64,000 nt of DNA from an uncultured Planctomycetota bacterium (GTDB taxonomy: Bacteria > Planctomycetota > SKW154 > DAOVDS01), in NCBI GenBank assembly GCA_964641955.1, contig CAZXNM010000018.1, positions 25,620 through 89,619 on the forward strand, read 5' to 3'. The position numbers and the translations under genes were made by a program. The notes beneath the pieces were generated by a model. It did not search any database. It had not been told where the DNA came from and was given only the letters and a program-made list of their open reading frames with translations. Every line of letters begins with the position of its first letter. Position 1 is the stretch's first letter. Positions 3,310 to 34,145 of the stretch are shown piece by piece.

Positions 3310-5037
3310 TTATTTCTTCTTGCGGGCGGCGTACCAATCGGACCATGCCTTGTAAGTCTTGCCGGGGTTCTGGCGGGTGATTTTCCTGAGCGTGTCGTGG
3401 GCGAGGCCGCGGGCGAATTCATCCTTATCTTTGAGCATTTCGATAAGCGGCTCCACGGCTGCCATACCGAACCGCTTCAGCTCGTTTGCAGCCACGAAAC
3501 GCGAGCCCTGGTCCCTGAGCTTCGCAATAAGAGGCTTTATGGCTCTCTCGTCGCCTATTCTGCCCAGCGCCTCCGCCGCCCGGCACCGAACGAGCCATGA
3601 TTTGTCGTCCAGAGCCTTGATAAGCGGCTTGAGAGCTTCCCTGCTGCTGGTCGCGCCAAGCGCCTTCGCCGCTTCTTCGCGTACTCCCTGCTCCTTGTGA
3701 TCCAGGCCACGAACCAGTGTCCCGACCACTGCTTCACCGAAGCAGGCAAGGTCCTCGGCGACAAAGGAGGATGCATGCTCATCCGCCAGAAAAGCCTCGG
3801 ACATGGGTTTTATGGCCTTCGGGTCACCTATAAGGCCCAGTGATTGCGAAACATGAATGCGGACTTCGATGTCCTCGTCCTTGAGAAGAGCAATCAGGGG
3901 ACCGACTGCTTTTTTGTCGCGAATGTCTCCGAGTGCCTGTGCCGCGATGCTGCGAACTTCCGGAAGCTCGTCCTTCAAGGCTTCGATGAACGGCTCCAGG
4001 GATGTTCCGTCATGCATTTTCCGCAGGGATTGCACTGCGTTGTAGCGCACGAACCACGACTTGTCCTTGAGCATCGGAATCAAGGCTCTGACCGTATCCG
4101 CGCCGGGCATGCCGCCCAGTTCTTCCGCAATGGCGCCGCGGACATCGGCGTCGTTCTCTTTCATGAGCATTTCAAGCAGCAGTTTCTTCGCTTCTGTCGG
4201 GACTATCTCTGCAAGCGCCTGGACGGCTGTTGTACGCACGGTGGCATCATCATCTTTCAACAACTCTTTCAGAGGCTTAACGGCAGCTTTATTGCCTGAC
4301 AGACGCATGGCATAAGCTGCCCACTCCCGAGCAGAGGCGCTCTTATAGAGGCAGACTTTCGCAAGGTGGGCAATTGCAGGTGTACCGATTGTGGAAAGCG
4401 CTTTTGCCGCCATATGGGCCTTGTTCGTGTCAGTATGACCAAGAAGTTCCGCCAGGTATGGGATTGAGTCTTCTCCTAACCGCACCAGGGCCTCAGACGC
4501 CACCCAGTCAGCATTGGGCATGCCGGCTTCTTCGAGTATGATGACGGGTCCACTGCTGGATTGGCATACAGTCCCGATTGTCTCGCGCATGAGAATTGCC
4601 GTAAACAATCCCGCGGCATCTTCTGAGTGCAGCTTATCAACTGCCCTGAGTGCGTGGCAGAGCTGTTCATCGGGGCCGTTCTCGCAGAGCCTGGTAATAT
4701 TGGGCACAGCTTTCAGTATATCCGGCGTTATTCTGTACTTGTCGTAGAGCCTGAGTATTCGCTTCAAGCGGACTTCGATTTCTTCATCGCCGGTGGTCTT
4801 GCGCGTTTCCTGCGCCATCTCGAGCGCGAGGGCAGAGCCGGATTCGAGCAGCTTGATGAGTTCCTGGTGCGCGCTTTCGCGCTCGCGCCATTCTTCGGAG
4901 CTGAGGCCGGTCAGCAGTTTGGATATTTTCGCCTTTTCTTTCTCCGCTTCCCGGTTTTTGGCAGGCTGCTTTTCCTGCGCGTGCGTGAGGTTCACCGCCA
5001 GAAACATCACCGCTGCTATAAGGAGTGCCTTTCTCAT
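3310..5037 (-). CDS. Secreted HEAT-repeat protein
   Basis: Start moved to ATG 5037 (SD GGAG; signal peptide MRKALLIAAVMFLAVNLTHA-Q). Many HEAT repeats. C-terminal cap LRKITRQNPGKTYKAWSDW. Confidence 0.88.
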   Translation of the reverse strand: MRKALLIAAVMFLAVNLTHAQEKQPAKNREAEKEKAKISKLLTGLSSEEWRERESAHQELIKLLESGSALALEMAQETRKTTGDEEIEVRLKRILRLYDKYRITPDILKAVPNITRLCENGPDEQLCHALRAVDKLHSEDAAGLFTAILMRETIGTVCQSSSGPVIILEEAGMPNADWVASEALVRLGEDSIPYLAELLGHTDTNKAHMAAKALSTIGTPAIAHLAKVCLYKSASAREWAAYAMRLSGNKAAVKPLKELLKDDDATVRTTAVQALAEIVPTEAKKLLLEMLMKENDADVRGAIAEELGGMPGADTVRALIPMLKDKSWFVRYNAVQSLRKMHDGTSLEPFIEALKDELPEVRSIAAQALGDIRDKKAVGPLIALLKDEDIEVRIHVSQSLGLIGDPKAIKPMSEAFLADEHASSFVAEDLACFGEAVVGTLVRGLDHKEQGVREEAAKALGATSSREALKPLIKALDDKSWLVRCRAAEALGRIGDERAIKPLIAKLRDQGSRFVAANELKRFGMAAVEPLIEMLKDKDEFARGLAHDTLRKITRQNPGKTYKAWSDWYAARKKK

Positions 5038-6223: not shown

Positions 6224-6601
6224 ATGGCCGAGAAGCTTCAGATTTACAAGTGCGGGGCGTGCGGGAACATTGTCGAGGTCCTGCACGGAGGCAAGGGACA
6301 GCTTGTCTGCTGCGGCGCACCGATGAATCTCTATACGGAGAACACGACCGACGCCGCCACGGAGAAGCACGTGCCGGTAGTCGAAAAGGCGGGCGAGGGC
6401 ACGCTTGCGAAGGTCGGGAGCGTGGCGCACCCCATGGAGGAGAAGCATTACATCGAATGGATTGAGATGATAACCGCCGACGGGAAGGCGGTTCGCCAGT
6501 TCCTGAAGCCGGGCGATGCGCCGCAGGCCGGGTTCTGCGAGGGACCGGAAGGGGCAGTGGTGCGCGAGTACTGCAACGTGCACGGCCTGTGGAAGGCATA
6601 G
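6224..6601 (+). CDS. dfx: Desulfoferrodoxin (2Fe superoxide reductase)
   Basis: Desulforedoxin domain [12 protein letters not shown]...VCCG. SOR motifs [17 protein letters not shown] and [15 protein letters not shown]. Confidence 0.95.
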
Positions 6602-6686
6602 CCGCAGTCTGACGATAGAGAGATAACGATGCCGGGGTGTGCAGCGAATGACTGCGTGCCCCGGTCCTGCTGTCAGGGGGAAGCTC

Positions 6687-8198
6687 GTGAGGATAAATGT
6701 TTTTGCCATAGCGGCGGCGATTGGCCTTATTGTGGTTTTCGAGGTCGCCGGACAGCCAGAAACTGAGGAGAAGCCGGTCAGCGAGGCGACCGGGGAATGC
6801 CTCGACTGCCATGAGGTGGTCAGCCCGGGAATCGTGGCCGACTGGCGCCGCAGCAGGCACGCGAAGACGACCCCCGCCGAAGCGCTCAAGAAGGAGAAAC
6901 TCGAAAAGCGGGTCTCTTCGCAGGAAATTCCCGACGCGCTCTCGGGCGTCGTGGTGGGCTGCGCGGAGTGCCACAAGCTGAACCCCGGCAGCCACAAGGA
7001 CACGTTCGAGCACAGCGAACACAAGGTTCACACGGTCGTCACGCCCGCCGACTGCGCTGTCTGTCACAAGGTCGAGGCGGAGCAGTACGGCATGAACATC
7101 ATGGCGCACGCCTACGGCAACCTGAAGAACAACCCGGTCTTCCAGAGCCTTGAAAAATCTATAAACGGCCCGCAGTCATACGAAAACGGCAGGTTCTCCG
7201 AGAGCGATGCCGATTCGCTGACCGGCGAGGATTCGTGCTACGTCTGCCACGGGACGGAAATCACCGTGAAAGGTGCAAAGAAGGTCGAGACTGACTTCGG
7301 CGAGATGCAGTTTCCCGTCCTCGGGGGCTGGCCGAACCAGGGCACCGGCAGGCTGAACCCGGACGGCAGCATGGGGGCGTGCACGTCCTGCCACCCGCGC
7401 CACGTGTTCTCGATCGAGGTCGCGCGAAAGCCATACACGTGCTCGCAATGCCACAAGGGGCCCGACGTCCCCGCCTACAAGGTCTACGAGGTGAGCAAGC
7501 ATGGGAACATCTTCAAGTCGGCCGGCGGGAAGTGGGATTTCGCGGCGGTTCCATGGAAAGTAGGCAAAGATTTCACTGTGCCGACATGCGCGGGATGCCA
7601 CGTGAGCCTTGTCACGAGCGACGGGGAAGTTATCGCGGAACGCACTCACCGGATGAACGACAGGCTGGGCTGGCGGCTGTTCGGAGTAATATACGCCCAC
7701 CCGCACCCGAAATCCCCCGATACGTCGAAAATCAAGAACAGGGCGGGCCTGCCGCTCCCCACGGAGCTTACCGGCGAGCCTGCCGCGGAGTTCGTCATTG
7801 ATGCCAAAGAGAAGGCGAAGCGAGACGGGGCGATGCGAAAGGTCTGCGCCGCGTGTCACAGCGCGGGTTGGGTTGACGGACATTTCGCGCGCCTTGACAG
7901 GGCTGTCGAGACGACGAACAGGATGACCCTGGCCGCAACGAAGGTCCTGCTCGAAGCGTGGGAGAAAGGCGCGGCGAAGGGACTTGCGCAGGATGACAGC
8001 ATTTTCAACGAGCCCATCGAGAAAAAGTGGGTCGAGCAGTGGCTTTTCTATGCGAACTCGACGCGCTTTGCATCGGCGATGGCAGGCGCTGACCTGGGCG
8101 TGTTCGCAGGCGGACGCTGGCATTTGAGCAGGAATCTCCGGGAGATGTCCGACTGGCTTGAGTTAAAGATGATGAAGTATAACAAAGAGGGAAAATAG
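6687..8198 (+). CDS. Octaheme cytochrome c of the hydroxylamine oxidoreductase (HAO) family
   Basis: Eight CxxCH motifs: CLDCH, CAECH, CAVCH, CYVCH, CTSCH, CSQCH, CAGCH, CAACH. HAO-family segments WPNQGTGRLNPDGSMGACTSCH and CHKGPDVP..VYEVSKHG. Likely GTG start at 6687 (SD AGGGGG, hydrophobic N-terminus). Confidence 0.9.
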   Translation: MRINVFAIAAAIGLIVVFEVAGQPETEEKPVSEATGECLDCHEVVSPGIVADWRRSRHAKTTPAEALKKEKLEKRVSSQEIPDALSGVVVGCAECHKLNPGSHKDTFEHSEHKVHTVVTPADCAVCHKVEAEQYGMNIMAHAYGNLKNNPVFQSLEKSINGPQSYENGRFSESDADSLTGEDSCYVCHGTEITVKGAKKVETDFGEMQFPVLGGWPNQGTGRLNPDGSMGACTSCHPRHVFSIEVARKPYTCSQCHKGPDVPAYKVYEVSKHGNIFKSAGGKWDFAAVPWKVGKDFTVPTCAGCHVSLVTSDGEVIAERTHRMNDRLGWRLFGVIYAHPHPKSPDTSKIKNRAGLPLPTELTGEPAAEFVIDAKEKAKRDGAMRKVCAACHSAGWVDGHFARLDRAVETTNRMTLAATKVLLEAWEKGAAKGLAQDDSIFNEPIEKKWVEQWLFYANSTRFASAMAGADLGVFAGGRWHLSRNLREMSDWLELKMMKYNKEGK

Positions 8199-8336
8199 TC
8201 GGCCGCTACCTCGCAAACGAAGTGCCTGCGAGAGCGTACAAAGGATGGCGGTTTTGACGTGATATTAGAACTGGCGAAGCGTCTTACGGTATGCTAACAT
8301 ACCGGCGGGCTTGAAATATTGTTCCGGAGGGATCAA

Positions 8337-10109
8337 ATGCATTATCGCAATCTTCTTCTGTTGTTCTCGTTCTGCGTTGTGCTGCTGCTTTTCCTGCCGG
8401 GCGCTGCGCTTGCGGATACTATCTTCAAGACGGACGGCACGCAGCTAAAAGGCAAAATTACCAAGGAGAACGAGGACTATGTCTGGATTGAAACCAGATT
8501 CGGCGTCATGAAGGTGGACAGGCTCGACGTAGACTACATCGAGCGAGGCGGCAACGAGGAAGCGGAAAAGCCGAAGGTAGAAGAAGAGAAACCCGTCAAG
8601 CCGGAGAAGCCTGTCGAGAAAGAGACAATAAAGCCGGTCAAACCCGAAGAACCCGAGAAGCCAGACAAGGCCAAGAAACCGGAGGAGCCGGAAGACAAGC
8701 CGGCGCTCTTCGATGACAAGTTGATGAGCGAAACGAATCTCAAGAAACTCCAGAAGATTTGCCAGGATAGGATGAAGGCATACGAAGGAGTCTCATGGGA
8801 CCAGGCGTACAACCTGACGGTCGAGGGCGGTGGAAGGACGATTTTCAATATCAAGTGCAACAGCACCAAGAAAGTCGCGGAGCACTACAAGTGGCTGCTC
8901 AGCAAGCTTTATTCCAAGTACTGCAAGGTTTTCGCCGCGTTCAGGCCCAGCGCGATACCGTGCAACATTGAGATTTACCGCAACTACACCGAGTTCCGCC
9001 AGGTCAAGGGCGTGCAGCCGGGAGTGGGCGGGTTCTACCAGCCCGGCAGGCACGTGCTGTGCGCCTTCCACGGCACAATGGGCTCGTTGGACACCAAGGG
9101 AGTCCTGGCGCACGAGGGGTGTCATCTTTTCCAGGACCTTATCGGGCTGTTCGGCCGGGGCCGCGGGGGCGGCGGCTGCCCTATCTGGGTGCTCGAGGGC
9201 ATGGCGGTGCTTATGGAGGCAGCCAAGGTCGAGAGGGATGGAGAGATTCACATCAAGGGGGTATCACCCGACCGGCTCCAGAACCTCCAGAACAAGATAA
9301 AGAGCGGCACCGCGATACCTCTTGCAACGGTAATGAGCACGCCCCAGCCGCAGTTCAGGGCGGACCATTACGCGCATGCCGGCATGTTCACGTTCTGGCT
9401 GATTAAGGGCTCGAAGAAGAAGAGCACCGTCGCGCTTTACAACGACTATCTCAAGATTGCCGCGGGCGGCGTGACGAGTTCGGGCGCTACGCTTCGGCCC
9501 GGCAGGATAAACTCGGGCGATTTCGAGCGGCTCTGCCAGGCGCGCGGGACCACCTTGGACAAGCTCGAGGAGCAGTGGAAGAAGTGGGTCATGAAGCAGA
9601 AGATAGAGAGGCCGGGCAGGGTCGAGGGCAACAATTTCGTCTGCGACGAGTACGGTCTGATCGTCTCGAGGCCCGATTCCAAGTGGAAATTCGAGACCAA
9701 GGAAACCCACGGCGCGCTCTGCATGATGACGCACAAGGACATCAAAGGCTGGATTCTTGTCTCCTTAGGCGGGACTTTCGGAACGCCCAAACTGGACGAA
9801 TATCTCGCCATGGGCGACACGATGCGCAAGAACTACATATCGAGGTTCGACCGATACAAGCAGATTTCCCGGGAGACCAAGAAGTTCTTCAAGGATTCTC
9901 TCGACGGCTACGAATCGGTCAGCGAGTATGCCGACAAGGAAAGCCCTCTCACTAAGGAGTTCATGCGGCGCCGCGGCATCAGCGTGTCAATGGTGGACAC
10001 GCTCTACCACATAAGCTGCATGGCGCCCCCGGAAGGGTTCGACGAATACCAGAAGTACTTCGACAAGGTCGTCGCCTCGTTCCGGCTCGACGCCGACAAG
10101 ATCGAGTAG
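8337..10109 (+). CDS. Secreted DUF1570-like/peptidase-MA-like protein with an HExxH motif
   Basis: ATG 8337 with SD GGAGG and a signal peptide. N-terminal beta module DTIFKTDGTQLKGKI, PEK-rich linker, LAHEGCH, and WVLEGMA. Confidence 0.8.
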   Translation: MHYRNLLLLFSFCVVLLLFLPGAALADTIFKTDGTQLKGKITKENEDYVWIETRFGVMKVDRLDVDYIERGGNEEAEKPKVEEEKPVKPEKPVEKETIKPVKPEEPEKPDKAKKPEEPEDKPALFDDKLMSETNLKKLQKICQDRMKAYEGVSWDQAYNLTVEGGGRTIFNIKCNSTKKVAEHYKWLLSKLYSKYCKVFAAFRPSAIPCNIEIYRNYTEFRQVKGVQPGVGGFYQPGRHVLCAFHGTMGSLDTKGVLAHEGCHLFQDLIGLFGRGRGGGGCPIWVLEGMAVLMEAAKVERDGEIHIKGVSPDRLQNLQNKIKSGTAIPLATVMSTPQPQFRADHYAHAGMFTFWLIKGSKKKSTVALYNDYLKIAAGGVTSSGATLRPGRINSGDFERLCQARGTTLDKLEEQWKKWVMKQKIERPGRVEGNNFVCDEYGLIVSRPDSKWKFETKETHGALCMMTHKDIKGWILVSLGGTFGTPKLDEYLAMGDTMRKNYISRFDRYKQISRETKKFFKDSLDGYESVSEYADKESPLTKEFMRRRGISVSMVDTLYHISCMAPPEGFDEYQKYFDKVVASFRLDADKIE

Positions 10110-10155
10110 GCTCCCGGATCTGGGTGCCGGGACAAAATTTCGTTTCCGAAATTCG

Positions 10156-10183
10156 AGGGTCGCGTGAACCGCGGCCCTTTTTC
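10156..10183 (+). terminator. Intrinsic terminator
   Basis: AGGGTCGCG-TGAAC-CGCGGCCCT (9 bp including one U-G pair) followed by TTTTC. Confidence 0.7.
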
Positions 10184-10226: not shown

Positions 10227-11321
10227 ATGCTTGGAACATCAATACTTGAGACAACGTGCAGCAGGTTTCTCGACGGGAACTGGTCGAGGGTTTGCTACAC
10301 GTACTATCGGATGAGGCAGAAGGCGGGGCTGCTCGCGCCGCCCGAGGACGTGCAGTGGCTCGCCACATCGCGGTGCAACCTGCACTGCAGGCACTGCGGC
10401 ACGGACGCCGGCGCTGCCGCGCCCAACGAGCTGACCACGGAAGAAATCAAGGGCGTTCTCGACGAGCTGGCCGCGCTGGACACGACGTATCTGACGCTCA
10501 CCGGCGGCGAGCCGCTTATGCGGGAAGACCTCTTCGAGGTGCTTCATTACGCGGCCGAGCTTGGCATTCGGTACAACATAGTCACGAACGCGACCTTCGT
10601 GCCGAGATTCGAGGATGAGTTCAGGAAGCTCCCGCCGGCGTCGGTGAAAGTCTCGATAGACGGCCCGCCCGAGACGCACGCCTACATCCGCGGCGACCGG
10701 GACAACTTCGAGGCCTGCATGCACGCGCTTACTTTCTTCAAGACGCTCGGAATCGACACGCGCGTTATCTGCACGACGCTCAACCAGCGCAATATCGGCG
10801 AAGTGGAAGAGCTTTTAAGGTACGTCAGGTCTTCGGACGCGACACTGTGGGAATTCCATCGCCCGACTCTCGAGGGCCGGGCGGCTGTCAACTCCGGCTG
10901 GATGTACCTGACGCAGGAGCAGTTCACGGGACTGTTCCGGTTCATAATGGAGAACCAGCACCTTTTCCCGATTTTCATGGGCGAGGGGTGCGGGTATACC
11001 GGCTCGATTACGCGCAGAATATACGACGGGCGCAGATTCTTCTGCGGGGCGGGGTGGTCCACGTTCACGATTATGCACGACGGCTCGGTCGCGGGCTGTC
11101 CTGCGTTCGAGAAACAGTGGACTGAGGGCTCCATCAGGGAAAAATCTGTCACCGAGCTGTGGCGGACGGGCTTCAGGCGCTTTCGCGAGATATACAGTAA
11201 CCTTAACGAGGAATGCAGGCAGTGCAAGTACCTGAGCGCCTGCCACGGCGGATGCTGGATGCACAGGCGCACCGGCGACCAGTGCCTGAAGGAAGTATGG
11301 GAAAAGATGACCCGGGCTTGA
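10227..11321 (+). CDS. Radical SAM/SPASM-domain protein, putative protein/peptide maturase (rSAM/lipoprotein-system-like, candidate splicease)
   Basis: CxxxCxxC motif RCNLHCRHC, GGEPLMR, and SPASM cysteines FFCGAG...DGSVAGCP...CRQC..LSACHGGC. Start assigned to ATG 10227, downstream of the terminator. Confidence 0.9.
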   Translation: MLGTSILETTCSRFLDGNWSRVCYTYYRMRQKAGLLAPPEDVQWLATSRCNLHCRHCGTDAGAAAPNELTTEEIKGVLDELAALDTTYLTLTGGEPLMREDLFEVLHYAAELGIRYNIVTNATFVPRFEDEFRKLPPASVKVSIDGPPETHAYIRGDRDNFEACMHALTFFKTLGIDTRVICTTLNQRNIGEVEELLRYVRSSDATLWEFHRPTLEGRAAVNSGWMYLTQEQFTGLFRFIMENQHLFPIFMGEGCGYTGSITRRIYDGRRFFCGAGWSTFTIMHDGSVAGCPAFEKQWTEGSIREKSVTELWRTGFRRFREIYSNLNEECRQCKYLSACHGGCWMHRRTGDQCLKEVWEKMTRA

Positions 11322-11336
11322 CGGGAGATTAAGACT

Positions 11337-12791
11337 ATGGAAAAGCTGCAGAATGTCGTGTTGTTCACGGCCGCGCTGTTCAGCGCGCTGGCGCTGTTCG
11401 CCGTCGGGAAGCGCTATATAGCCACGAGCGCCAACTCGCGCAGGGCAAGGAAATACCTGCTCTACACTTCCGCCGTGCTTGTCTTCCTCTGTGGGACGAC
11501 GGGCCTGCTCAGGTCCAACTCGGGAGGCGTTGCTTACGCGCAGGAAAAAGCCCGCCCCACCACTGACACGAATCTCAGCCAGTGCGCCGGGTGGCAGCGG
11601 ATACGCTCGTTTACCATGACGACAATCGGGCGTCTGCGGCTTCGTGAGAAGCTCGATACGGACAAGCTCAATAAGTTCAGGTCCGAGTTGAAGGAGCGAA
11701 TCTCCGATGCGGGCGAGTTGAAGAAATCGGGCACAATCTCCGAGCCGGTGAGATTTTACGTGGAGACCATTCTCAAGGACCTCGCGTGGCAGGTGGAGAA
11801 CGCCGCTTCCGGCAAAACGCCGGCGAAGAGCGAGGTGGCGAAAAGGTTCGCGTTCGAGCTGAGGCTGCATCGCGATGTTGCGCGATACCTTAACGGGTCG
11901 AGCCGCTGCGACGATTCTCAACGGCCGGAAAAGCTCAAGGATGTATTGGGCGACAAGGCGATAAGAAAGTCGGATATCACTCTGGCAGCACAGCTAAAGG
12001 CAACAGTCCAGGCCGCTTTCGACATGGCGAAAAGCCTTGCGTTCAAGGACAAGCTTACCGGCAGCGGTTGCGCCCGCGAGGGATACAAGAAACTCCTCTG
12101 TACACTTTCCGATGAGGTCTATGGTTTCGTCGCCCGCTCGCGCCCGGGCATTCACAGGGAGATTCCGCCCGACCCGGCACCGGTTCCCGAGTACGGTGTG
12201 AAACCGCTCTACGGCGTACGCCCAGAGCCGCCGCGCCGCATGCCAAAGCTGCAGGCTGCGCAGGGGCCGACTGTGGTTTCGCTCGAAGGCAAGCTGAAAG
12301 TCAGGCGCCCCGGCGGCGTCTGGCGCGGAGTCGGCACAGGGACCACGGTCACGGTTGCTTCGGTAGTCGAGAACTGCCGCGACAAGAAGGATGTCGTTAA
12401 ATTTTCGAACGGGCCTGCAGCGACAATCGAGCCGCGGGAAGTCCTCGCCGGATGGGAACTCCGGGCCGAGACCCCTCCGGAACTGCTGCGACGTGTGGCG
12501 AAGCTCATTGAGAACCTCGCAGGCGAGGACGAGGTGCGCTCCGGGGCAATGACCGAACTCAGGGGAATGGGGCTTTCGGTGTGGCCTTCGCTGCAGGAAA
12601 CGGCTTTCTGCGACGTGAGCCGGCGGGCCGAAGCGGCCATCCAGCTTCTGCGGGAGCTTGCGAACCGTTACGGGACGTACGGCGGCAGTCTGACGGCTGA
12701 CGACCTCTCGCTCAGCAGTTCCACGCTGCCAGCGGAGCCCGTGCCCCCGCCGTCCATGACCCGGTACGGGGTCAGGCCTCGCGGGCGTTAG
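11337..12791 (+). CDS. Membrane-anchored protein with repeated XYGV(K/R)P motifs; putative rSAM substrate
   Basis: Starts 15 nt after the rSAM stop. Two N-terminal hydrophobic helices. EYGVKP (E285), LYGVRP (L291) and RYGVRP (R476) lie in Pro-rich segments. Also a FecR-like beta segment and a HEAT-like module. Confidence 0.8.
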   Translation: MEKLQNVVLFTAALFSALALFAVGKRYIATSANSRRARKYLLYTSAVLVFLCGTTGLLRSNSGGVAYAQEKARPTTDTNLSQCAGWQRIRSFTMTTIGRLRLREKLDTDKLNKFRSELKERISDAGELKKSGTISEPVRFYVETILKDLAWQVENAASGKTPAKSEVAKRFAFELRLHRDVARYLNGSSRCDDSQRPEKLKDVLGDKAIRKSDITLAAQLKATVQAAFDMAKSLAFKDKLTGSGCAREGYKKLLCTLSDEVYGFVARSRPGIHREIPPDPAPVPEYGVKPLYGVRPEPPRRMPKLQAAQGPTVVSLEGKLKVRRPGGVWRGVGTGTTVTVASVVENCRDKKDVVKFSNGPAATIEPREVLAGWELRAETPPELLRRVAKLIENLAGEDEVRSGAMTELRGMGLSVWPSLQETAFCDVSRRAEAAIQLLRELANRYGTYGGSLTADDLSLSSSTLPAEPVPPPSMTRYGVRPRGR

Positions 12792-12900: not shown

Positions 12901-13914
12901 GTGAAATATACGCTGTATATTGCGCTGGCAGTGGCGCTTCTTATGTATCCCGCCGCTGTCTTCGCCCAGGAAGGCCAGGGTGATGGTCCGCGCGACGCCC
13001 GACCTGCCGCGAAGAAAGCAGGCAGCAAGAAGGATGAGGCGGCGACCAGCGACCCGGCTTCGCTCAAGGACCTCAAGCACACCATCAGCTTCCTGAACCT
13101 CCTGAACGGGCTCAACCTGACGCAGGAACAGCTTGATAAGCTCATCAAGCTCAACAAAAAGTACGGGGAGACGGCGGTCGAATACGAAAAAAAGTACAGG
13201 GAAGTCCTGGATGACGAGAAGTCCGTGCTGTCGGAACTCGAAGAAGTCGTCCGTCAGAACAAGCCCATTCCCAAAAAGCTCGAGAACAGGGTCCACAAGG
13301 TCGAGGAGCGCTCCCGTGAGGTCAAGCGCGTTGTGGATGAAACGAACGTTAAGTTCATAAAGACGACGGAGTCGATTTTTACCGAGGAGCAGATGGAGGT
13401 TATCGAGGATTTCGAACCCTGCACTATACCCCCGAAAAACCTCAGCGACCCGGTCCGCGTCGGCCAGGCTTCAGACAACGAGCGCGTTGTCAGTATCATG
13501 CGCAGAATCCGGCAAATGCCCCAGCATATGTTCGATGCCAATCTCGATGGTATCCTGGACAAGCACATGGAACACCTCACAAAGAAGAAAAGGCTGTCAG
13601 ACAAGGAAAAACAGGCTGAGAGGGAGAGGCTCAAGGGATTCCTCAACATGGTCCGCAACATGGAGGAAGTGGAGTTCGAGATAAACAAAGACAAGCTCGC
13701 CGAGGATTACAAGTGGAAGGACCAGGCCAAGGAACTGCGCAAGGAACTCGACAAAGTCTCCAGGGTGAGGCACCCGAACCGCGGCCAGAGCAAGGCGGCT
13801 CGGTACTTCCTCGATCCGAAAATCATACCCGTGCTCGAAGAGAGGCTCGAAAAGGCCAGAGGCGACGAAGGCAAGCTCAGGGGCGGCAAGCGCTCCGGCG
13901 GGAAAAAGCGTTAG
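12901..13914 (+). CDS. Secreted helical protein with an LNLTxEQ (Spy/CpxP-like) motif; paralog A
   Basis: GTG start with SD GGAGG. Signal peptide ending AVFA-Q. Shares PPK(N/S)LSDPVRVGQA with 17534..18697. Confidence 0.8.
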   Translation: MKYTLYIALAVALLMYPAAVFAQEGQGDGPRDARPAAKKAGSKKDEAATSDPASLKDLKHTISFLNLLNGLNLTQEQLDKLIKLNKKYGETAVEYEKKYREVLDDEKSVLSELEEVVRQNKPIPKKLENRVHKVEERSREVKRVVDETNVKFIKTTESIFTEEQMEVIEDFEPCTIPPKNLSDPVRVGQASDNERVVSIMRRIRQMPQHMFDANLDGILDKHMEHLTKKKRLSDKEKQAERERLKGFLNMVRNMEEVEFEINKDKLAEDYKWKDQAKELRKELDKVSRVRHPNRGQSKAARYFLDPKIIPVLEERLEKARGDEGKLRGGKRSGGKKR

Positions 13915-13966
13915 ACGACCAGGCCGACAGGCTTATTTGACCCACGGACGGCTGCAATATGAAACC

Positions 13967-13995
13967 TTGCACCGGCGTTCCTGCTATTACATAAT
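13967..13995 (+). promoter_or_regulatory. Putative sigma70 promoter
   Basis: TTGCAC-17 nt-CATAAT, upstream of ATG 14030. Confidence 0.5.
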
Positions 13996-14029
13996 AGAAA
14001 AGGAACAAACACTGCGCAGGTGAATCAAA

Positions 14030-15163
14030 ATGCACATAACGAGAAGGGAATTCCTGAGGCAGGCGGGAAAAACCACGGTGGCCGTGGGGAGCCTGCCTTT
14101 GCTGCTGAAGGCGCTCGGCCTGATTGACGAGCCGCTCTTCGCCGCGGGCGGGTATCCCGAGGCAAAGTACTACGACAAGCTGTCCGGCAAGCAGGTCCAC
14201 TGCATGCTCTGCCCGATGCAGCACGTGCTCGACGACGGCGAGACGGGGCCCTGCCGCACGCGAAAGAATCACGGCGGAGTTCTGAAGACTCACGCATACG
14301 AGAATCCCGCAATTATCAAGGTGGACCCGATAGAGAAGCTGCCCTCGACGCATTTCCTTCCCGACACGAAGACGCTGACCATAGCGACAGGGGGCTGCAC
14401 CCTGAGATGCCTCTACTGCCAGAACTGGCAGCAGTCGCAAAGCGCGCCGGAGGCTCTCAAGACGGTTGACCTGCCGGCGGCGGAGGCGGTCAAGCGCGCC
14501 CTCGGCAAGGAAATCAAGGCGATTGCGTTCAGCTACACCGAGCCGTTCGTTTTCTACGAGTACGCGCTGGAGATTGCGAAAAAAGCCAAAGAGAAGAAGA
14601 TGCGCGTCGCGATTGCCACGGGTGGCTATATCGAGGAGAAGCCGCTCGTCGAGCTGTGCAAGTACGTGGATGCGATTACGGTCGGGCTAAAGGGATTCAC
14701 GGAGAAATGTTACGAAAAGCTGACGAGCCGGTCGCTTGACAATGTGAAAAAAACGCTGCAGACAATCAAGAAAAAGACCAAGGTCTGGCTCGAAATCACG
14801 AACTTGGTCGTTCCCACGTACAACGACGACCGGAAGATGATTACCGAGATGTGCAAATGGATTAAGAAAAACCTCGGTACGGACGTTCCGCTGCATTTCG
14901 GCCGGTTCGTGCCCAAGTACAAGCTCAAGAACCTGCCGCAGACGCCCCTGAAGAGCCTCGAAGAAGCCCGGCAAATCGGCTTGAAGGAAGGGCTCAGGTT
15001 CGTCTACATATCGAACGTGGCTCCGCACGAGGGCAATAACACCTACTGCCCGGGCTGCAAGAAGCCGCTGATAAAGCGCGTTGGCTTCAAGGTTCTCGAG
15101 AACGAGATAAAAGACGGCAAGTGCAGGTTCTGCGGCAGGAAGATACCGGGGGTGTGGAAATAG
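14030..15163 (+). CDS. amrS: AmmeMemoRadiSam-system radical SAM enzyme (PflA-like) with a twin-arginine leader
   Basis: N-terminal TRREFL. VHCMLCP..C...GPCRTRKN, DPIEKLP, GCTLRCLYCQNW, FSYTEP, WLEITNLVVP, PLHF, and C-terminal TYCPGC...CRFCG. Confidence 0.88.
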   Translation: MHITRREFLRQAGKTTVAVGSLPLLLKALGLIDEPLFAAGGYPEAKYYDKLSGKQVHCMLCPMQHVLDDGETGPCRTRKNHGGVLKTHAYENPAIIKVDPIEKLPSTHFLPDTKTLTIATGGCTLRCLYCQNWQQSQSAPEALKTVDLPAAEAVKRALGKEIKAIAFSYTEPFVFYEYALEIAKKAKEKKMRVAIATGGYIEEKPLVELCKYVDAITVGLKGFTEKCYEKLTSRSLDNVKKTLQTIKKKTKVWLEITNLVVPTYNDDRKMITEMCKWIKKNLGTDVPLHFGRFVPKYKLKNLPQTPLKSLEEARQIGLKEGLRFVYISNVAPHEGNNTYCPGCKKPLIKRVGFKVLENEIKDGKCRFCGRKIPGVWK

Positions 15164-17460
15164 CCTCCCGCCGAGCCACCGCCGCCGCGACCCTGGCCGC
15201 GCTTCTCGCGGTAGGCGCATTCGAGCAGATTTCCCAGGTCATCCTCGTCAGGGAATTCTTCGTCGTTTTCAAGGGCAACGAGGTCTCGTTCGGCGCTGTC
15301 TTTGCCTTCTGGATGCTCTGGACCGCCGCCGGTAGCTGGGTTGCGGGCATGCTCGCCAGCAGAATCGAAAAGCCCGCCCGCTGGTTCTGCGTGCTCAACC
15401 TGCTGCTCGGCGTGCTTCTGGTCGCGGAAATCTACCTCGCGCGCATCTCGCGCAGCTTCTTCGACATACCCTCCGGGGCTTATGTAAGCATCTTTTCCAT
15501 GGCGCTTTTCACTTTCATCATGCTTGCCGGGGTGTGCTTCGTCGGCGGGACGCTTTTCGTGGTCGGCGCGAAGCTTTACGCCGCCGTGCGTGACAGCTCC
15601 GGGGCGGACGTGCCCGCGAGGGCCTACATAGCCGACTCGCTCGGCTGTCTCGTCGGCGGGGTCGGTGCGACCTTCGTGTTCGTGATATTTTTCGATTCGT
15701 TCACGAGCGCTTTCATCGCATCCGCGGCGCTTCTTGCAGCGGCGGCGTGGCTTGCGTTCTCCAGCGGTCTGCGAGTGCTGCGCGTGGTCGTTCCGGCTGC
15801 CGGCGCGGCGTGCATTGTGCTCTGCTTCTTCGGGCCTTCGCTTAACTGGGCTGCGGAGAAGGCACAGTGGCGGCGCTACAACAAGGCCTACGAACTCGTC
15901 GATACGCGCAACTCGAAATACGGCAACCTCGCAGTACTTAAGTATGGCGAACAGCACTCGCTCTTCGGGAACGGCGACCTGTACTTCTCCATGCCTGACG
16001 AGGAAGCTCCGAAGAACGCGGCGAATCTCTTCATGCTGCAGCATCCAGCCCCGAAGGATGTCCTTGTCGTGGGAGGCGGAATATCCGGGATGCTGCGCTG
16101 GATTCTGCTCTACGATGTCGAGCGCCTCGACTACGTGGAGCTTGACCCCGAGGTTATCGAAATGGCGAGGAAGTATCTCGCGCCGGACGACTTGGAAGCA
16201 CTCGAGCACGAAGCGGTGCATATCCACAATACGGACGGCAGGATGTTCATCTGGCGCACGCAGCACATGTACGACCTCGTTATCTGCCAGCTTCCCGACC
16301 CGTCCACCGCGTCGCTGAACCGGTTCTACACGCTGGAATTTTTCGAGCGCGCGCGGAAGGTTCTCAAAAAAGGCGGCGTATTTGTCACGGGCGTGTCCGG
16401 CGAGGGTTTCTGGGAAAAGGAGCTGATGCAGCGCAACGGCTCCGTCTTTGTGACGCTCGCGCAGGCATTCCCGAAGGTGATAGCCACGCCGGGCGGGACT
16501 TTCGTTGCGGGCGAAGAGGACGCGCCGGTCTCGCTCGATGCGGACGAACTCGCGCACAGGTACAGGTCGCGCGGGCTGGAAGTGCCGGGCTTCGTGCCGG
16601 AGCTGTTCTGTCTCATGCTCGAACCCGATTCGGTGGAGGCTGTAAACAGCAAGCTACAGGCATTTTCATCGCGCAAGGGGCAAGAGGGAGCGATTATAAA
16701 CACCGACTCTTATCCCATCAGTTATTTCTACAATCTTCTGATATGGAACAGGTATTCCGAGTCGGAGTGGGTGGCGGCGTTCGACTGGATGATTACGGTC
16801 CGGGCGTGGTGGGTTTTCCCGGTGCTCGCGGTGCTGCTGCTGCCTCTGCTGGTTCTGGCGGTTCTGCCGCGGACGAGGAAGGGCGGGGCGCACGCCAGGT
16901 ACACGGTGCTCCTTCTCATGGCGGTTACGGGCCTGTTCGGCATGGTCGTCGAGATTACGCTGCTCTACTGGTTCCAGAATATCTACGGCTACGTTTACGC
17001 CATGGTGGGCCTGCTGACATCGATGTTCATGTTCGGTCTGGCGGTGGGGGCGCTGGTCTCGCGGCGGGTAATGGGTGGCTGGCGGTCAAAGAGCGCTACT
17101 CTCGTCTGGGGCGCCGCGGCGCTCGCCTTCTGCGCCATTGTGGGGCTTCTGGGCCGCGCAACGCTGGGAGTTTCCCCGTCTCTGTCGATCTGGTTCTTCC
17201 TTGTCCTTAACTTCGCGGGCGGGCTGATTGTGGGGGCGATATTCCGCATGATGGCGGTTGCTGCCGAAGGGCTGGGATGGAAGCCTGAAAAATCCGCGGG
17301 CCTGCTTTACGGCGCCGACCTGGGCGGGGCGTGTCTTGGCTCGCTTGCTGCAGGGTCGCTCCTCATTCCCGTCCTCGGCACCCAGACTACGTGCCTCGTC
17401 GTTGGGATTCTCATGGCCGGCGCGCTGGCGGGATTTGCGCTTGCAGTGCGGAAATCTTGA
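15154..17460 (+). CDS. Multi-pass membrane protein fused to a spermidine-synthase-like SAM-dependent transferase domain
   Basis: N- and C-terminal TM bundles around VLVVGGGISG, YVELDPEVI, DGRMFI, YDLVICQLPDP and NRFYTLEFF. Likely GTG start at 15154, overlapping the amrS stop. Confidence 0.85.
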   Translation: MEIASRRATAAATLAALLAVGAFEQISQVILVREFFVVFKGNEVSFGAVFAFWMLWTAAGSWVAGMLASRIEKPARWFCVLNLLLGVLLVAEIYLARISRSFFDIPSGAYVSIFSMALFTFIMLAGVCFVGGTLFVVGAKLYAAVRDSSGADVPARAYIADSLGCLVGGVGATFVFVIFFDSFTSAFIASAALLAAAAWLAFSSGLRVLRVVVPAAGAACIVLCFFGPSLNWAAEKAQWRRYNKAYELVDTRNSKYGNLAVLKYGEQHSLFGNGDLYFSMPDEEAPKNAANLFMLQHPAPKDVLVVGGGISGMLRWILLYDVERLDYVELDPEVIEMARKYLAPDDLEALEHEAVHIHNTDGRMFIWRTQHMYDLVICQLPDPSTASLNRFYTLEFFERARKVLKKGGVFVTGVSGEGFWEKELMQRNGSVFVTLAQAFPKVIATPGGTFVAGEEDAPVSLDADELAHRYRSRGLEVPGFVPELFCLMLEPDSVEAVNSKLQAFSSRKGQEGAIINTDSYPISYFYNLLIWNRYSESEWVAAFDWMITVRAWWVFPVLAVLLLPLLVLAVLPRTRKGGAHARYTVLLLMAVTGLFGMVVEITLLYWFQNIYGYVYAMVGLLTSMFMFGLAVGALVSRRVMGGWRSKSATLVWGAAALAFCAIVGLLGRATLGVSPSLSIWFFLVLNFAGGLIVGAIFRMMAVAAEGLGWKPEKSAGLLYGADLGGACLGSLAAGSLLIPVLGTQTTCLVVGILMAGALAGFALAVRKS

Positions 17461-17533
17461 AACCTGCCCGGCATGCCCGCGTTACTGATGTTTGAGGGAA
17501 ACAATTAAGGTTCGTAAATGCACGGAGGTCGAT

Positions 17534-18697
17534 ATGGGCAAGCTGGCGATTATCGTGGTCGCTGTCGCTCTTGCAATTGTTCTGGTAACGGGGTCGGCTG
17601 TCACGGCGCAGGAAAAGGACGGGGAGCAACCAGAAAAGAAATACGCCTCCTGGGACGAGCACCTGTACGAACTTGGCTACCGGCTCTACATCAACTCGAC
17701 GATTAACGTGATAAACGGCGTCAACCTTACAAGGGAACAGGCTGTCAAACTGCGCGACTTGGCAAAGGAAGTAGAGAAGAAAGGCATCAAAAAGCCGGAA
17801 AGCAAAGGTAAGTTCCTGCCGGAAGTCCAGAAAGTCCGGGACGTCTTCATGGGGATTCAAAAGACCTTATCTGAAAGGAAAGAGGTCGGCAAGGAACTGA
17901 ACGCGAAGCTTGTGGAGGCGAGAAAGCTCGAATCCAGGATTCTCAGGGACGGTTTGACTTCTCCCGTCGTGGGCGAGAAATACGCCTCGTGCCGCCGCTG
18001 TCACGCCGAGCCAGGTTCCGAGGATGGGAAAATCACTTACGACGTCAAGGGCAAGAAGTGGAAAGCCATGGGTGCACAGGCAAAGTCGTCACGGGTAAAG
18101 AGGGAAATGGCAATCGCCCACCTCGGCGCAATTCTCAAGGATGAAGCAGGGTTCAAGTTCATGAGCAAGGAGATGAGCAAGAAGGTTGCTGCAATACTCA
18201 CGGACAATCAGAAAGAGGTCGTAGGCAACTTCTCCTGCTGCCTCGTGCCGCCGAAGTCGCTGAGCGACCCGGTGCGCGTGGGGCAGGCCGATGTGGCCGA
18301 GTGGCAGGTCGAGATGCTCGAGAAGGCGCGCAAGTGCCCCGACAGGCTCTGGCCTGCCGCGAAGAAGCGCACCCTCGACGAGCTCGAGAAGGCGGCTGCG
18401 GTTACCGACCCCGGGATAACCGAGAAGAAGAAAAAAGAGGAGCGCGAACGGGTAGCCGCGATACTCGACAAGGCGCGCTCTCTTTCAGACGTAGATTTCG
18501 AGATGGAAAAAGAAGAACTCGCTGCGCAGATTAAACTCTCTGCGGCCGAGATGCCCGAGTACCTGAGAGATTTCAACAGCGCGTTCTTCCTTCTCATGCC
18601 GGGCTCGGTGGAAGTGTACGACGGGCTTATAAAGCACCTCGACAGCCAGGAGTCACTTAAAGGCACCAAAAAGGGCGAAGCCGAAAAGGACAAATAA
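17534..18697 (+). CDS. Secreted helical protein, paralog B of 12901..13914, with a single CxxCH heme c motif
   Basis: ATG 17534 with SD GGAGG and a signal peptide. VNLTREQ, SCRRCH (nt 17990-18004), CCLVPPKSLSDPVRVGQA. Confidence 0.8.
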   Translation: MGKLAIIVVAVALAIVLVTGSAVTAQEKDGEQPEKKYASWDEHLYELGYRLYINSTINVINGVNLTREQAVKLRDLAKEVEKKGIKKPESKGKFLPEVQKVRDVFMGIQKTLSERKEVGKELNAKLVEARKLESRILRDGLTSPVVGEKYASCRRCHAEPGSEDGKITYDVKGKKWKAMGAQAKSSRVKREMAIAHLGAILKDEAGFKFMSKEMSKKVAAILTDNQKEVVGNFSCCLVPPKSLSDPVRVGQADVAEWQVEMLEKARKCPDRLWPAAKKRTLDELEKAAAVTDPGITEKKKKEERERVAAILDKARSLSDVDFEMEKEELAAQIKLSAAEMPEYLRDFNSAFFLLMPGSVEVYDGLIKHLDSQESLKGTKKGEAEKDK

Positions 18698-18810: not shown

Positions 18811-18864
18811 TGTACCGGAGCTTTGTGCTTCTTAACACCCGGCGTTGGCAGAGGGACGGTCCGA

Positions 18865-21800
18865 ATGACCAGGCGCGCGATTGCTGCCGCGTTGCTTTTA
18901 ATTCTCGCGCTTGGACTCTGCGATGCCGCGTTGGCCCAGGAAGAGAAGGAGTTCGAGGAGGATTTCCCCACCCACCGCTGGCCAATCGTGAACATCACGC
19001 GCGAGAAGCACAGATACAGCCTGAGGGCCCTCTACCTCCCTTTCCCGCTGTTCGAGCGGGAATGCAGGCCTAACGGATACGACTACCTGGCTGTGAGGCC
19101 GTTCTACTCGCGGACGATAGACCCGGAAAGGGAACTGGACTCTTTCAACCTGCTGTATCTCTTCGTGTACACGAAGGAAGCGGATGACACGCGCGTGGAG
19201 ATGCGACCCTTCTTCTGGCACGCGAACAGTCCCGAGAGGTCGCATACGGTGGTCTTTCCCATTTTCTGGCGATACCTGTGGGAGGACAGCGCGAGGACCG
19301 TGGTCTTCCCGTTCTTCTGGCGCTCGAGCTGGGGGGACGACCACACGACGGCGGTGTTCCCGCTGGTGTGGACGAGCCGCTGGGGAGATGATGCCTCCAC
19401 CGTAGTGTTCCCCTTCTTCTGGAAATACCGCTGGGGAAAAGACAGCGCGAGCGTCGTTTTCCCCTTCTACTGGCATCGCAGGGACGGCCCGGAGGTATCG
19501 GCGATATTCCTGCCTTTCTTCTGGTACGAGCGCAGGCCCGGATACTCTTCGGTCGATGTATGGCCGTTCTACGGGCGCTCGACTAGCGAGGATGGGAGCC
19601 GGTGGAACCGCCTGCTGGCGCCGGTCTTTTCGTGGGGCGGCGACTCTCCGGACGAGTTCCAGTTCAACATGCTCTGGCCGCTCAACACAGTCTACTGGAA
19701 CAGCGCTGAGAAGCGTTTCCTGATGCGGATATTTCCCCTGCTGTTTCATGAGAGCGGCGAGGGGACGCGCCCCTACACGGTTATCTTCCCGGTGTTCTGG
19801 AGCCTTCCTGCCGGCGAGGACGGGCGCTTCAACATGGTGTTTCCGCTTTTCTGGACAATGCGTGCCGGAGGCATATCGAACCTGTTTATTTTTCCGAGCT
19901 TCTATCGCAGTACCTGTGGCGATACCAGTCGGACGGTCTTCTTCCCGTTCTTCTGGCACGTCACCGACGGGGAAGCATACAAGACTTTCATCTTCCCGAG
20001 CTTCTTCAGCAGGCGCACGCAGGATGTCAAAGAGACGGGCTTCCTGCCGTTCTTCTGGCATCTGGCCAGAGAGGGAGAAACGAGGACGTTCATCTTTCCC
20101 GGTTACTATCGGCGGAACGCCGGGGAGAACACGGACACGGTCTTTTTCCCCGTTTACTGGGATTTCAGGAGGGGCGAGTCGCTCACGAGGCTCATTTTTC
20201 CGCTCTATTTCCACCGGAAGGCCGGCGACGAGGCGGCGACGGTTCTCTTCCCGTTATGGTGGAATTTCCGCAGGGGCGAGAACTCCACGAAACTGCTGCT
20301 ACCACTGTGCTACCGGCGAGTCGCGGGCGAGGAGAAGGATTTAGTCCTGTTCCCGTTCTACTGGTGCTTCGCCAGGCCCGGAGCCACAACGACGTGCATC
20401 TTTCCCAACTGCTACTTCCACTCCACGGAGGAGCAGAGCGAGAGCGTGGTTTTCCCGTTCTACTGGAACTTCCGCAAGGACGAATCCCTGACGAGGGTGC
20501 TGTTCCCCTTCCATTTCCACCGGACTTCCGGCGAGAAGAAGGCGAACGTATGGTTCCCATTCTACTGGAACTTCCGGGAAGGCGAGGACCACACGAAGCT
20601 GATTCTCCCGACTTACTACAGCCGCGTCTCCGGCGAGGAAAAGACGAAGGTTGTCTTCCCGTTCTACTACCACTCCGAGGATTCCGAAAGCAGCACGACC
20701 TTCATCGCCCCGAATTTCTACAAAGGCATTTCGGGAGTCGATAAAAAGACGATGCTCTTTCCGTTCTTCTGGGACCTGCGCGGTGAGAACTCGCGCTCGT
20801 TTCACGTATGGCCGTTTTACGGTTACGAGTACGAAGGCGAGAATTACCGGCGCCACTGGGTTTCGCTGCCGCTGTTTTCGTGGGCGACTCACGGCCCGGG
20901 CGACAGGGAGTACGACCTCCTCTGGCCGCTTTTCAAGTATCACACGAACAAAGAAAAGGGCCTGACCTACGCCCGCGCCTTCCCGCTGGCGTTCCACAAG
21001 CGAAGCAACGAAGGCAGGCAGTTCACTGTCATCTTCCCGACCCTGTGGCATTTCGCCGACCCCTCTTCGGACAGCAGCTTCACGTCGGTCTTTCCGTTCT
21101 ACTGGCACAGCAAGAGAGAGTCCGGCGCGCGCTTCACCTCGGTTTTTCCCGTGTACTGGAACAACACAAGCTCCGATGGCGGCAGGTTCACTTCCGTATT
21201 CCCGTTCTACTGGAAGAACGTCAACCCGGAGGGCGACAGATTCACGGCGGTGTTTCCCTTCTACTGGAACAACAAGCCCGCCGACGGCGGCGATTTTACA
21301 TCCCTCTTTCCCTTTTACTGGCATAACCGAACCAGGTCGGGTTCCGTTCTCAACGCGCTGTTTCCTTTCTACTGGGAGAAATACAGCCCGGACGGCGACC
21401 GATTCAGGGCGGTCTTTCCCGTCTACTGGTACAATCGCACGCTGGAAGGCTCGGTTTTCACGTCAGTGTTCCCGTTTTACTGGAAGCATTGGGGCGCGGG
21501 CGGGAACGTATTCACGGGAGTGTTCCCGTTCTACTGGCGCAATCGCAGCGCGAAAGGAGATGTTTTTACTTCCCTCTTCCCGCTTTACTGGCACAGTGCC
21601 AGGACCACGGGCTCGCGATTCACTTCCATCTTCCCGCTTTACTGGGACAACCTGAAAGCGGATGGCGACCGGCTTACGACACTCTTCCCGGTGTTCTGGA
21701 AAGTCAAAGAGGGCGACCAGCGCTGCGTCCACGTCTGGCCTTTGTTCGGGTACGACAGGTGGGGCGAGGAGCGCAGCAGGTACTCCTTCCTGTTTCCGCT

Positions 21801-34130: not shown

Positions 34131-34145
34131 AGAGGAGGATAAGGC

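Follow-up and report, generated by a model that had tools for sequence, protein, structure and literature searches.

Spliceases are radical S-adenosylmethionine (rSAM) enzymes with a SPASM domain that excise tyramine at X-Y-G sites (PMC11414181, PMC11626197), and one of them, PlpX, belongs to TIGR04103/IPR026482 (PMC11002830). Most splicease types are binary and do without a Y/RRE protein (RRE, the recognition element for peptides that are made on ribosomes and modified after translation, RiPPs), the leader serves mainly as an activator, a core tag of approximately 10-25 residues suffices for splicing within unrelated proteins, and the products inhibit Ser and Cys proteases (PMC11414181, PMC10533398, PMC11626197, PMC9811515). 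Splicease systems lacking such a protein have been described (PMC11414181), and spliceases can modify full proteins that carry a tag (PMC10533398). In the literature covered, every characterised splicease has a short RiPP precursor as its substrate, and the splicing of proteins is presented as a feat of engineering. Here, two adjoining genes are described in a 64,000-nt stretch of DNA (the window) from an uncultured Planctomycetota bacterium (SKW154; DAOVDS01; assembly GCA_964641955.1, contig CAZXNM010000018.1, positions 25,620-89,619). They encode an rSAM/SPASM enzyme and a membrane-anchored protein with YGVxP sites. Judged from sequence comparison, the two form a conserved functional pair that extends from planctomycete-like bacteria to DPANN archaea. 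The membrane protein is very probably the substrate, with the enzyme acting on the Tyr residues of its YGV sites. By analogy with spliceases, the reaction may be tyramine excision, which is somewhat favoured if the enzyme acts on these residues at all; the full statement, that it acts on them by tyramine excision, is given a probability of about 0.5.

Both genes lie on the forward strand (Table 1), and the open reading frame (ORF) of the enzyme can be read either from GTG 10164 or from ATG 10227 to position 11321. The ATG is probably the true start because a terminator-like hairpin overlaps the GTG, and the resulting 364 aa fit the lengths of orthologues (354-367 aa). On its 5' side, the two-gene unit is bounded by this hairpin. 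The partner ORF begins 15 nt past the rSAM stop and in frame with it, and the ORFs, Pfam matches and Cys motifs bore out the first-pass annotation, which had read the locus as an intact rSAM/SPASM gene just upstream of a protein with two transmembrane (TM) helices. Pfam scores of the enzyme were 80 bits for Radical_SAM and 42 bits for SPASM. Only 49 residues precede the CxxxCxxC motif, and the SPASM Cys pattern is complete (C-x17-C ... CxxCx5Cx3C ... C), with all seven of these Cys residues invariant among the 19 clade members of alignment A2. The radical-SAM motif and the full SPASM Cys set by which spliceases are recognised are thus both present. No RRE or PqqD gene adjoins the rSAM gene, and neither a PlpY-like RRE-related activator nor a precursor with a Nif11 or NHLP leader was found (window ORFs searched with NCBIfam and Pfam). 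The two-gene system contains no epimerase, protease or exporter gene, and no nir, ahb, pqq or mft genes, mftA and mftB included, were found among the scanned ORFs of the 64-kb window.

The gene directly upstream of the hairpin (window 8319-10109, + strand) encodes a secreted protein of 596 aa with a weak DUF1570 match and an HEGCH sequence (HExxH), possibly a metallopeptidase. It was rejected as the protease of the system, as the hairpin intervenes and the gene is not conserved in the other loci. The earlier statement that neither an RRE/PqqD gene nor a protease is adjacent consequently holds for RRE/PqqD and has to be amended for this HExxH gene.

Table 1. Positions of the features of the two-gene locus in the window, and the sites of homologous partners at other loci.
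Feature	Position	Strand	Details
Terminator-like hairpin	10155..10179	+	10-bp stem, 7 GC, T-run; follows the DUF1570-like gene and precedes the rSAM gene
Radical SAM/SPASM enzyme	10227..11321	+	364 aa; no N-terminal RRE domain
CNLHCRHC (CxxxCxxC, radical-SAM [4Fe-4S] cluster)	10374..10397	+	invariant in 19 clade members
SPASM auxiliary-cluster Cys	11043..11285	+	C-x17-C, CRQCKYLSACHGGC, final C
Partner, probable substrate	11337..12791	+	484 aa
Two N-terminal hydrophobic helices	11340..11498	+	Lys/Arg-rich loop GKRYIATSANSRRARKY between them
AYA/Q, possible signal-peptidase-I site	11532..11543	+	after TM2
Site 1, EYGVKP (Y286)	12189..12206	+	disordered Pro-rich linker
Site 2, LYGVRP (Y292)	12207..12224	+	in tandem with site 1
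Site 3, RYGVRP (Y477)	12762..12779	+	disordered C-terminal tail, 7 residues before the stop
L002 partner sites			MYGVD, EYGVT, KYGVM, EYGVR
L003 partner sites			EYGVRP, KYGVRE, AYGVRE
L004 partner sites			EYGVRP-LYGAQE-RYGIRPR at the C-terminus
L035 partner sites			KYGVIP and C-terminal VYGSRPK
L037/L040 partner sites			EYGVRP, LYGVRP-RYGVRP
L041 partner sites			MYGIEP, KYGVQP
L043 partner sites			KYGVRD, EYGVRP

Conservation of the pair was analyzed in 33 genome loci around rSAM relatives and in further contigs. In all related loci with enough flanking sequence, namely 10 bacterial loci and three of four DPANN archaeal loci, the clade rSAM gene adjoins a gene for a membrane-anchored protein with 1-4 X-Y-G-V sites. 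The bacterial enzymes among these share 47-93% identity and their neighbour is always a homologous TM-hairpin protein with YG[VIAS] sites; the pair was seen in the window and at L002, L003, L004, L035/L036, L037, L040, L041 and L043. Four lineages have the partner gene first and all others the rSAM gene first, and as the remaining neighbours are unrelated, it is the pair alone that is conserved. Across more than 12 loci the YGV protein is the sole conserved neighbour, and no alternative small ORF conserved beside the clade rSAM genes was detected in the loci examined. A metagenome scan with the partner alignment (A1) added only one locus, L040, while the broader partner alignment A3 contained no stretch conserved enough to serve as a query, and the partner-side co-occurrence statistic is small. 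At L041, a truncated second copy of the partner (4327-4728, 133 aa), comprising the TM hairpin and the first helices, lies directly downstream of the full-length partner.

The DPANN enzymes are 40-43% identical to the window enzyme, and their adjacent TM proteins of 52-143 aa carry the motif past the last TM helix (PMYGVEP/PMYGVPM/PEYGVGA, a terminal AMYGVRMP and a terminal PLYGVYSR). At L006 (165-752), a DPANN partner homologue ends with FFGVRILH where its L007 relative has AMYGVRMP; this may be a natural Tyr-to-Phe variant or a decayed copy beside the rSAM gene.

Altogether 33 sites in 13 partners were counted. Tyr and Gly are fixed in all 33, while the preceding residue is variable (E10, L6, K6, M5, R4, A1, V1). 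Position +2 is Val in 28 sites and otherwise Ile, Ala or Ser; Arg at +3 and Pro at +4 each occur in 21 of the 33. Pro makes up 24% of the residues near the sites and 6% overall. As far as these partners go, the conserved core is X-Y-G-V rather than the YGV(K/R)P proposed earlier. The copy number and position of the sites vary from partner to partner and the motif is retained. An adjoining protein with X-Y-G, in which Y and G are conserved and X is variable, is what a splicease substrate looks like, and the motif agrees with the published X-Y-G rule (PMC11414181, PMC11626197). The natural splicease cores MYGVVFP and LYGLPI (PMC10533398) resemble the partner sites, as does the Nostoc core LYGLPP.

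Only six homologues of the window's partner were obtained by searching, with 45-89% identity. Their alignment (A1) shows invariant columns for the Tyr and Gly of site 1 and for the entire C-terminal YGVRP, while the flanking linkers diverge; the first-pass annotation had asked whether the motif is kept as the rest of the protein diverges, and this is the pattern found. The site-1 Tyr is also invariant by alignment in A3, where the row of L004 pairs it with a Tyr-Ala. One homologue (P0007) has lost site 2 and gained an extra C-terminal copy. The background rate is 1.3-3.4e-4 YGV per residue, and three or more YGV were reached in 4 of 200,000 composition-preserving shuffles of the partner. Three further YG sites listed in the earlier annotation, Y262, Y445 and Y448, were discarded: they are not conserved as YG in the homologues, and Y262, whose Gly varies, is located within a confidently modelled helix. 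For these reasons only the three YGVxP sites appear to be credible targets.

The partner gave no Pfam, NCBIfam or TIGR04134 match. It lacks a lipobox, and searches with Pfam and NCBIfam revealed no RiPP domain of the leader kind in it. It is composed of a TM hairpin, a helical bundle (approximately residues 80-267), a Pro-rich linker, a small beta domain with a GWEL motif, HEAT-like helices and a disordered tail. In the AlphaFold2 model, which was built from a shallow alignment of 7 sequences and reached a mean pLDDT of 55, the N-terminal helices span residues 2-28 and 31-54 and the bundle is confident (pLDDT 75-93), and the beta module and the HEAT-like helices are of low confidence. Residues 270-312, with sites 1 and 2, and residues 446-484, with site 3, are likewise of low confidence or disordered, and their positions agree with the earlier description of EYGVKP, LYGVRP and RYGVRP as lying in Pro-rich disordered segments. 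A Foldseek search of the model against the PDB returned nothing significant (best E = 0.07, TM-scores 0.1-0.2). The TM hairpin is the best-conserved region across distant partners. By the positive-inside rule, its Lys/Arg-rich loop would be cytoplasmic and the C-terminal bulk outside. A putative A-x-A/Q signal-peptidase site is also present in L002 (AWA/Q) and L004 (AVA/Q).

The proposed mechanism can be stated as follows. The genes at 10227-11321 and 11337-12791 would constitute a self-contained two-gene module in which the cytoplasmic rSAM/SPASM enzyme recognises the adjoining membrane-anchored protein and modifies Tyr at exposed P-x-[E/L/K/M/R]-Y-G-V-R-P sites, three of them in this partner, before the C-terminal bulk is exported. 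Should splicing occur, Glu285, Leu291 and Arg476 would become ketoamide residues, and the mature protein would display these electrophiles on flexible tethers outside the cytoplasmic membrane. Since spliceotides are reported to inhibit proteases, one may speculate that the tethered ketoamides act as traps for Ser or Cys proteases with different P1 specificities, or else as covalent attachment points. By analogy, the pair would be a binary splicease-like system working on large, membrane-anchored and probably exported proteins, whose DPANN counterparts are minimal TM peptides. The archaeal partners, and TIGR04134 lipoproteins as well, would have their YG directly outside a membrane anchor. A more far-reaching version is put forward tentatively, as something possible rather than expected: a natural protein-splicing system common to Bacteria and DPANN Archaea would perform leader-independent tyramine excision at P-x-X-Y-G-V before export and so display arrays of alpha-keto-beta-amino-acid warheads on the outer face. 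In that version the warheads would derive from Glu, Leu, Arg, Lys or Met and serve as protease traps or in attachment chemistry, and TIGR04133/TIGR04134 would represent another form of this membrane-proximal X-Y-G arrangement.

The position of the enzyme among its relatives was analyzed with NCBIfam models. TIGR04133 was the best-scoring curated family (159.1 bits, cutoff 425) and MftC the second (133.3, cutoff 265), followed by NirJ2 (123, cutoff 500), AhbD (121, cutoff 500), the PlpX family TIGR04103 (105.8, cutoff 725), PqqE (95, cutoff 381) and the anaerobic sulfatase maturase (62.6, cutoff 349). By these cutoffs, the window enzyme is a member of none of TIGR04133, TIGR04103, MftC, NirJ2, AhbD or PqqE. 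Searches by tblastn gave 118 bits for a Phocaeicola TIGR04133-like enzyme, 113 for a GDL-motif maturase, 111 for MftC, 107 for Nostoc TIGR04103 and 105 for Parabacteroides TIGR04133. For the DPANN enzymes and the relatives associated with YG-rich ORFs, TIGR04133 and TIGR04103 rank at or near the top, TIGR04103 being second to fourth for the DPANN relatives. Among plasmid sequences, the L007 enzyme is matched best (165 bits) by a TIGR04103 protein of Nostoc, 'nif11-class peptide radical SAM maturase 3'.

A neighbour-joining tree was calculated from 45 sequences with 300 bootstraps and one outgroup, TIGR04103 being represented by one Nostoc reference. The bacterial core and the DPANN clade each received 100% support, their union 56%, and the joining of this YGV clade to a sister group of YG-rich and RiPP-associated enzymes (95% internally) 63%. 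TIGR04103 and the GDL-motif maturases grouped together (100%), and TIGR04133 formed a separate clade (99%). The first-pass annotation had likened the enzyme to the TIGR04133 branch; that family is indeed the highest-scoring one, but the score is below the cutoff and the clades are distinct. A particular kinship with PlpX-type enzymes was not supported, as the enzyme is no closer to TIGR04103 than to MftC or the GDL-motif maturases. The annotation had also named clustering with NirJ, AhbC or PqqE together with loss of the motif in homologues as the result that would speak against it, and neither was seen. Literature searches on TIGR04133/TIGR04134, on Planctomycetes with ketoamide and on the DUF1843/GDL motif returned nothing relevant.

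The best-supported sister group contains HflK-fused rSAMs encoded next to ORFs rich in YG, enzymes whose neighbours are GYG-rich, and a RiPP cluster in which the precursor has MYYGWF. At L020-L026 and L032 (e.g. L024 2452-4524), the rSAM/SPASM enzyme, 650-690 aa in total, carries an HflK/SPFH-like membrane domain fused to its N-terminus, and at L024 and L026 this gene is followed by a second rSAM gene and then by an ORF of 190-216 aa with 4-6 YG sites (LLYGINP, LLYGVFP, AYYGVGI). L042 (3751-9140) is a classic RiPP-like cluster around a relative with 39% identity and encodes a 63-aa peptide with MYYGWFGG, the rSAM/SPASM enzyme, two B12-binding rSAMs, another rSAM and a PqqD-domain protein. At L033, nearly the whole of an ORF of 253 aa (11143-11904, - strand) is taken up by G(L/M)YGG repeats, and it has 25 YG sites. 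A related rSAM/SPASM gene lies approximately 2.4 kb away, and the interval holds another YG-rich ORF (8872-9624) together with another rSAM gene. All near families appear to be Tyr-directed, and three of the four carry X-Y-G. The Nostoc Nif11 precursor (locus L044) ends with SIALYGLPPELF. The lipobox of three TIGR04134-like lipoproteins reads FQA-C-Y-G, the lipoprotein of P. distasonis has C-EYGSP, and DUF1843 'GDL' peptides start with MLYGGA or KPYGVA, while MftA ends with CGVY (reference locus L047).

Several observations weigh against tyramine excision on the partner. The enzyme misses both relevant cutoffs (159 of 425 bits for TIGR04133, 106 of 725 for TIGR04103), and TIGR04103, TIGR04133, the GDL-motif maturases and MftC are equidistant from it (105-118 bits, 25-29% identity), which is the reason why the excision chemistry is drawn by analogy with spliceases. 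The deep nodes of the tree, including the placement of MftC, have 18-54% support, and the bacterial clade joins the DPANN clade with only 56%. Two rSAM enzymes with 36-39% identity (L009, L018) have no YG neighbour. The sites would lie outside the membrane according to the positive-inside rule, so that the action of a cytoplasmic enzyme would need to precede translocation, and the partner model is subject to the shallow alignment and low mean pLDDT given above. Finally, the near-invariant Val at +2 is no known requirement of spliceases and could indicate a reaction between Tyr and Val.

The last point leads to a rival that is unlikely but has to be taken seriously, in which the same pair performs another Tyr-directed radical chemistry without backbone excision, such as a Tyr-Val C-C or C-O crosslink, a three-residue cyclophane (Tyr1-Gly2-Val3) or another side-chain change. 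The residues replacing Val at +2 (Ile, Ala, Ser) all have C-beta hydrogens, as Val does, and MftC, which joins Val and Tyr in its GVY terminus, is as close to the window enzyme as the PlpX-type enzymes (133 bits with NCBIfam; 111 versus 107 by tblastn), within a phylogeny whose deep nodes are weakly supported. However, an invariant Gly with a variable preceding residue is the signature of spliceases, whereas in cyclophane motifs it is usually the middle residue that varies. MftC requires a C-terminal Tyr and the MftB chaperone, neither of which applies in the window, and the Nostoc, TIGR04134 and GDL substrates have YG in common, not Val. It is improbable that the partner is instead a scaffold, an anchor or a co-regulated envelope protein, with YGV as a docking, protease or sorting signal and the rSAM enzyme acting elsewhere. 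The strong conservation of the TM hairpin, sites predicted to be outside the membrane and away from a cytoplasmic enzyme, and the lack of a detectable leader-like RiPP domain (Pfam, NCBIfam) would fit such a role. Yet the DPANN partners are reduced to TM helices and the motif, the motif is the only element common to all partners, the same dipeptide occurs in known or presumed substrates of related rSAM families, and no other small ORF is conserved beside the rSAM gene.

Two further explanations are effectively excluded. A cofactor-biosynthesis enzyme of the NirJ, AhbC, AhbD or PqqE type, with an incidental YGV neighbour, is very improbable: NirJ2 and AhbD score only moderately below TIGR04133, but all scores of this type (95-123 bits) are far from the cutoffs (381-650), the scanned ORFs of the window include no nir, ahb or pqq genes, and the association with the YGV protein recurs across the loci. 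The least probable reading of all ascribes the three hexamers to chance or to low complexity in the Pro-rich linker. The sites do lie in compositionally biased sequence, but the shuffling result and the recurrence of the motif in 13 partners of independent lineages, including archaeal proteins of 52-106 aa, argue against chance.

Other features of the window lie outside the two-gene unit. Downstream, four forward-strand genes (12901-13914, 14030-15163, 15121-17460 and 17492-18697) encode two paralogous secreted proteins (28% identity, E = 6e-20) that flank an AmmeMemoRadiSam-family rSAM (TIGR04337, 331 bits) and a membrane-fused spermidine-synthase-like protein. The N-terminal region of both paralogues is LTxxQ/Spy-CpxP-like, and they share a conserved block, C-x-(I/V)-PPK-x-LSDPVRVGQA. 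Neither AMMECR1 nor Memo was encoded among the scanned window ORFs, and the region 12901-18697 may be a second rSAM-plus-substrate module. Upstream, a small CxxC...CC protein (6224-6601, +), desulfoferrodoxin-like by eye only, and a 519-aa multiheme cytochrome c with weak matches to hydrazine dehydrogenase and hydroxylamine oxidoreductase (6639-8198, +) suggest an anaerobic lifestyle. The GC content drops to 0.485 at 34001-36000, compared with approximately 0.58 elsewhere, in a segment spanning the gene for a dihydroorotate dehydrogenase (34146-35057) and the ORF that follows it. An ORF of 1348 aa (18823-22869, +) has no Pfam match at E <= 1e-5.

If a 484-aa envelope protein is indeed spliced, the installation of backbone beta-amino acids and ketoamides would be a natural post-translational modification of structural proteins. 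For protein engineering, the pair would then provide an enzyme that is compact and RRE-free, and a portable tag of short length (approximately P-x-P-X-Y-G-V-R-P), and a function would be suggested for the uncharacterised TIGR04133/TIGR04134 system of gut Bacteroidota and for the tiny DPANN TM peptides. If the chemistry differs, for example in a Tyr-Val crosslink, a new rSAM reaction on proteins would be at hand.

Among known systems, the anaerobic sulfatase-maturating enzyme provides a precedent: it is an rSAM/SPASM enzyme whose substrate, an exported protein of full size, is modified while still in the cytoplasm. It is also among the top PDB sequence matches of the window enzyme (4k37). Its reaction converts Cys or Ser of a CxPxR motif to formylglycine by oxidation, and no sulfatase gene adjoins the rSAM gene of the window. 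The mycofactocin system MftC/MftA/MftB likewise has an rSAM/SPASM enzyme acting on a Tyr beside Gly-Val, but this Tyr is C-terminal, the reaction is a decarboxylation with Val-Tyr crosslinking, and MftB and the other mft genes have no counterpart in the window. The GDL-motif maturases (TIGR03913) are at a similar distance from the window enzyme and adjoin DUF1843 peptides with N-terminal LYGG or PYGV; they differ in an enzyme of approximately 515 aa, in small cytoplasmic-looking helical peptides present in triplicate, and in grouping with TIGR04103. Such triplets lie upstream of TIGR03913-type maturases at L046 (1552-2267) and L049 (1662-2375). Two peptides of the Azospirillum triplet have the YG-containing start given above and the third has PMYMAT.

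The TIGR04133/TIGR04134 system of Bacteroidota, whose function is uncharacterised, shares with the window an exported, membrane-anchored partner with a membrane-proximal YG and the lack of an RRE. TIGR04134-type lipoproteins adjoin true TIGR04133 rSAMs at L034 (2668-3000), L038 (2108-2494), L039 (2139-2504) and L045 (611-1453). Their motifs are CYGTP at L034 and L038, EYGSP at L045 and CYGDM, without Pro, at L039, so that the YG-x-P-like motifs ascribed earlier to TIGR04133 partners do occur. The window enzyme is 25-27% identical and falls in a separate clade, and the lipoproteins have a single lipobox site and an unrelated sequence. The comparison suggests that the Bacteroidota system targets the Tyr of the lipobox region, with X being the lipidated Cys or next to it.

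Closer in architecture are the binary (Y-less) type II spliceotide systems RhaX/RhaA and RcsX/RcsA of Rheinheimera, which consist of enzyme and substrate without an RRE protein and were found through YG enrichment beside rSAM-SPASM genes (PMC10849128, PMC11414181, PMC11626197). Their substrates are short secreted peptides with an enzyme-activating helical leader, whereas the conserved non-core part of the window's partner is a TM hairpin with a helical bundle; this distinction is drawn from the descriptions of these systems. A strategy of searching the surroundings of rSAM-SPASM genes for YG-rich ORFs has already been published (PMC10849128), and Scott et al. 2022 used it to validate 27 pairs and to predict 939 systems (PMC10849128, PMC10533398). 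The clade described here may already be listed among those 939. The title of that paper (Chem 8:2659) reportedly mentions 'peptides and proteins'. The type I spliceotide systems PlpX/PlpY/PlpA and PcpXYA of Pleurocapsa have in common with the window an rSAM/SPASM gene beside the substrate gene, X-Y-G with a variable X, the possibility of several sites and the similar site contexts noted above, and their processing does not depend on a leader and extends to whole proteins (PMC10533398, PMC11414181). The window enzyme is 27% identical to them and well below the family cutoff, its system contains neither a PlpY-like protein nor a Nif11 or NHLP leader, and where their substrate is a precursor of approximately 90-120 aa, the window's is a membrane-anchored multidomain protein of 484 aa.

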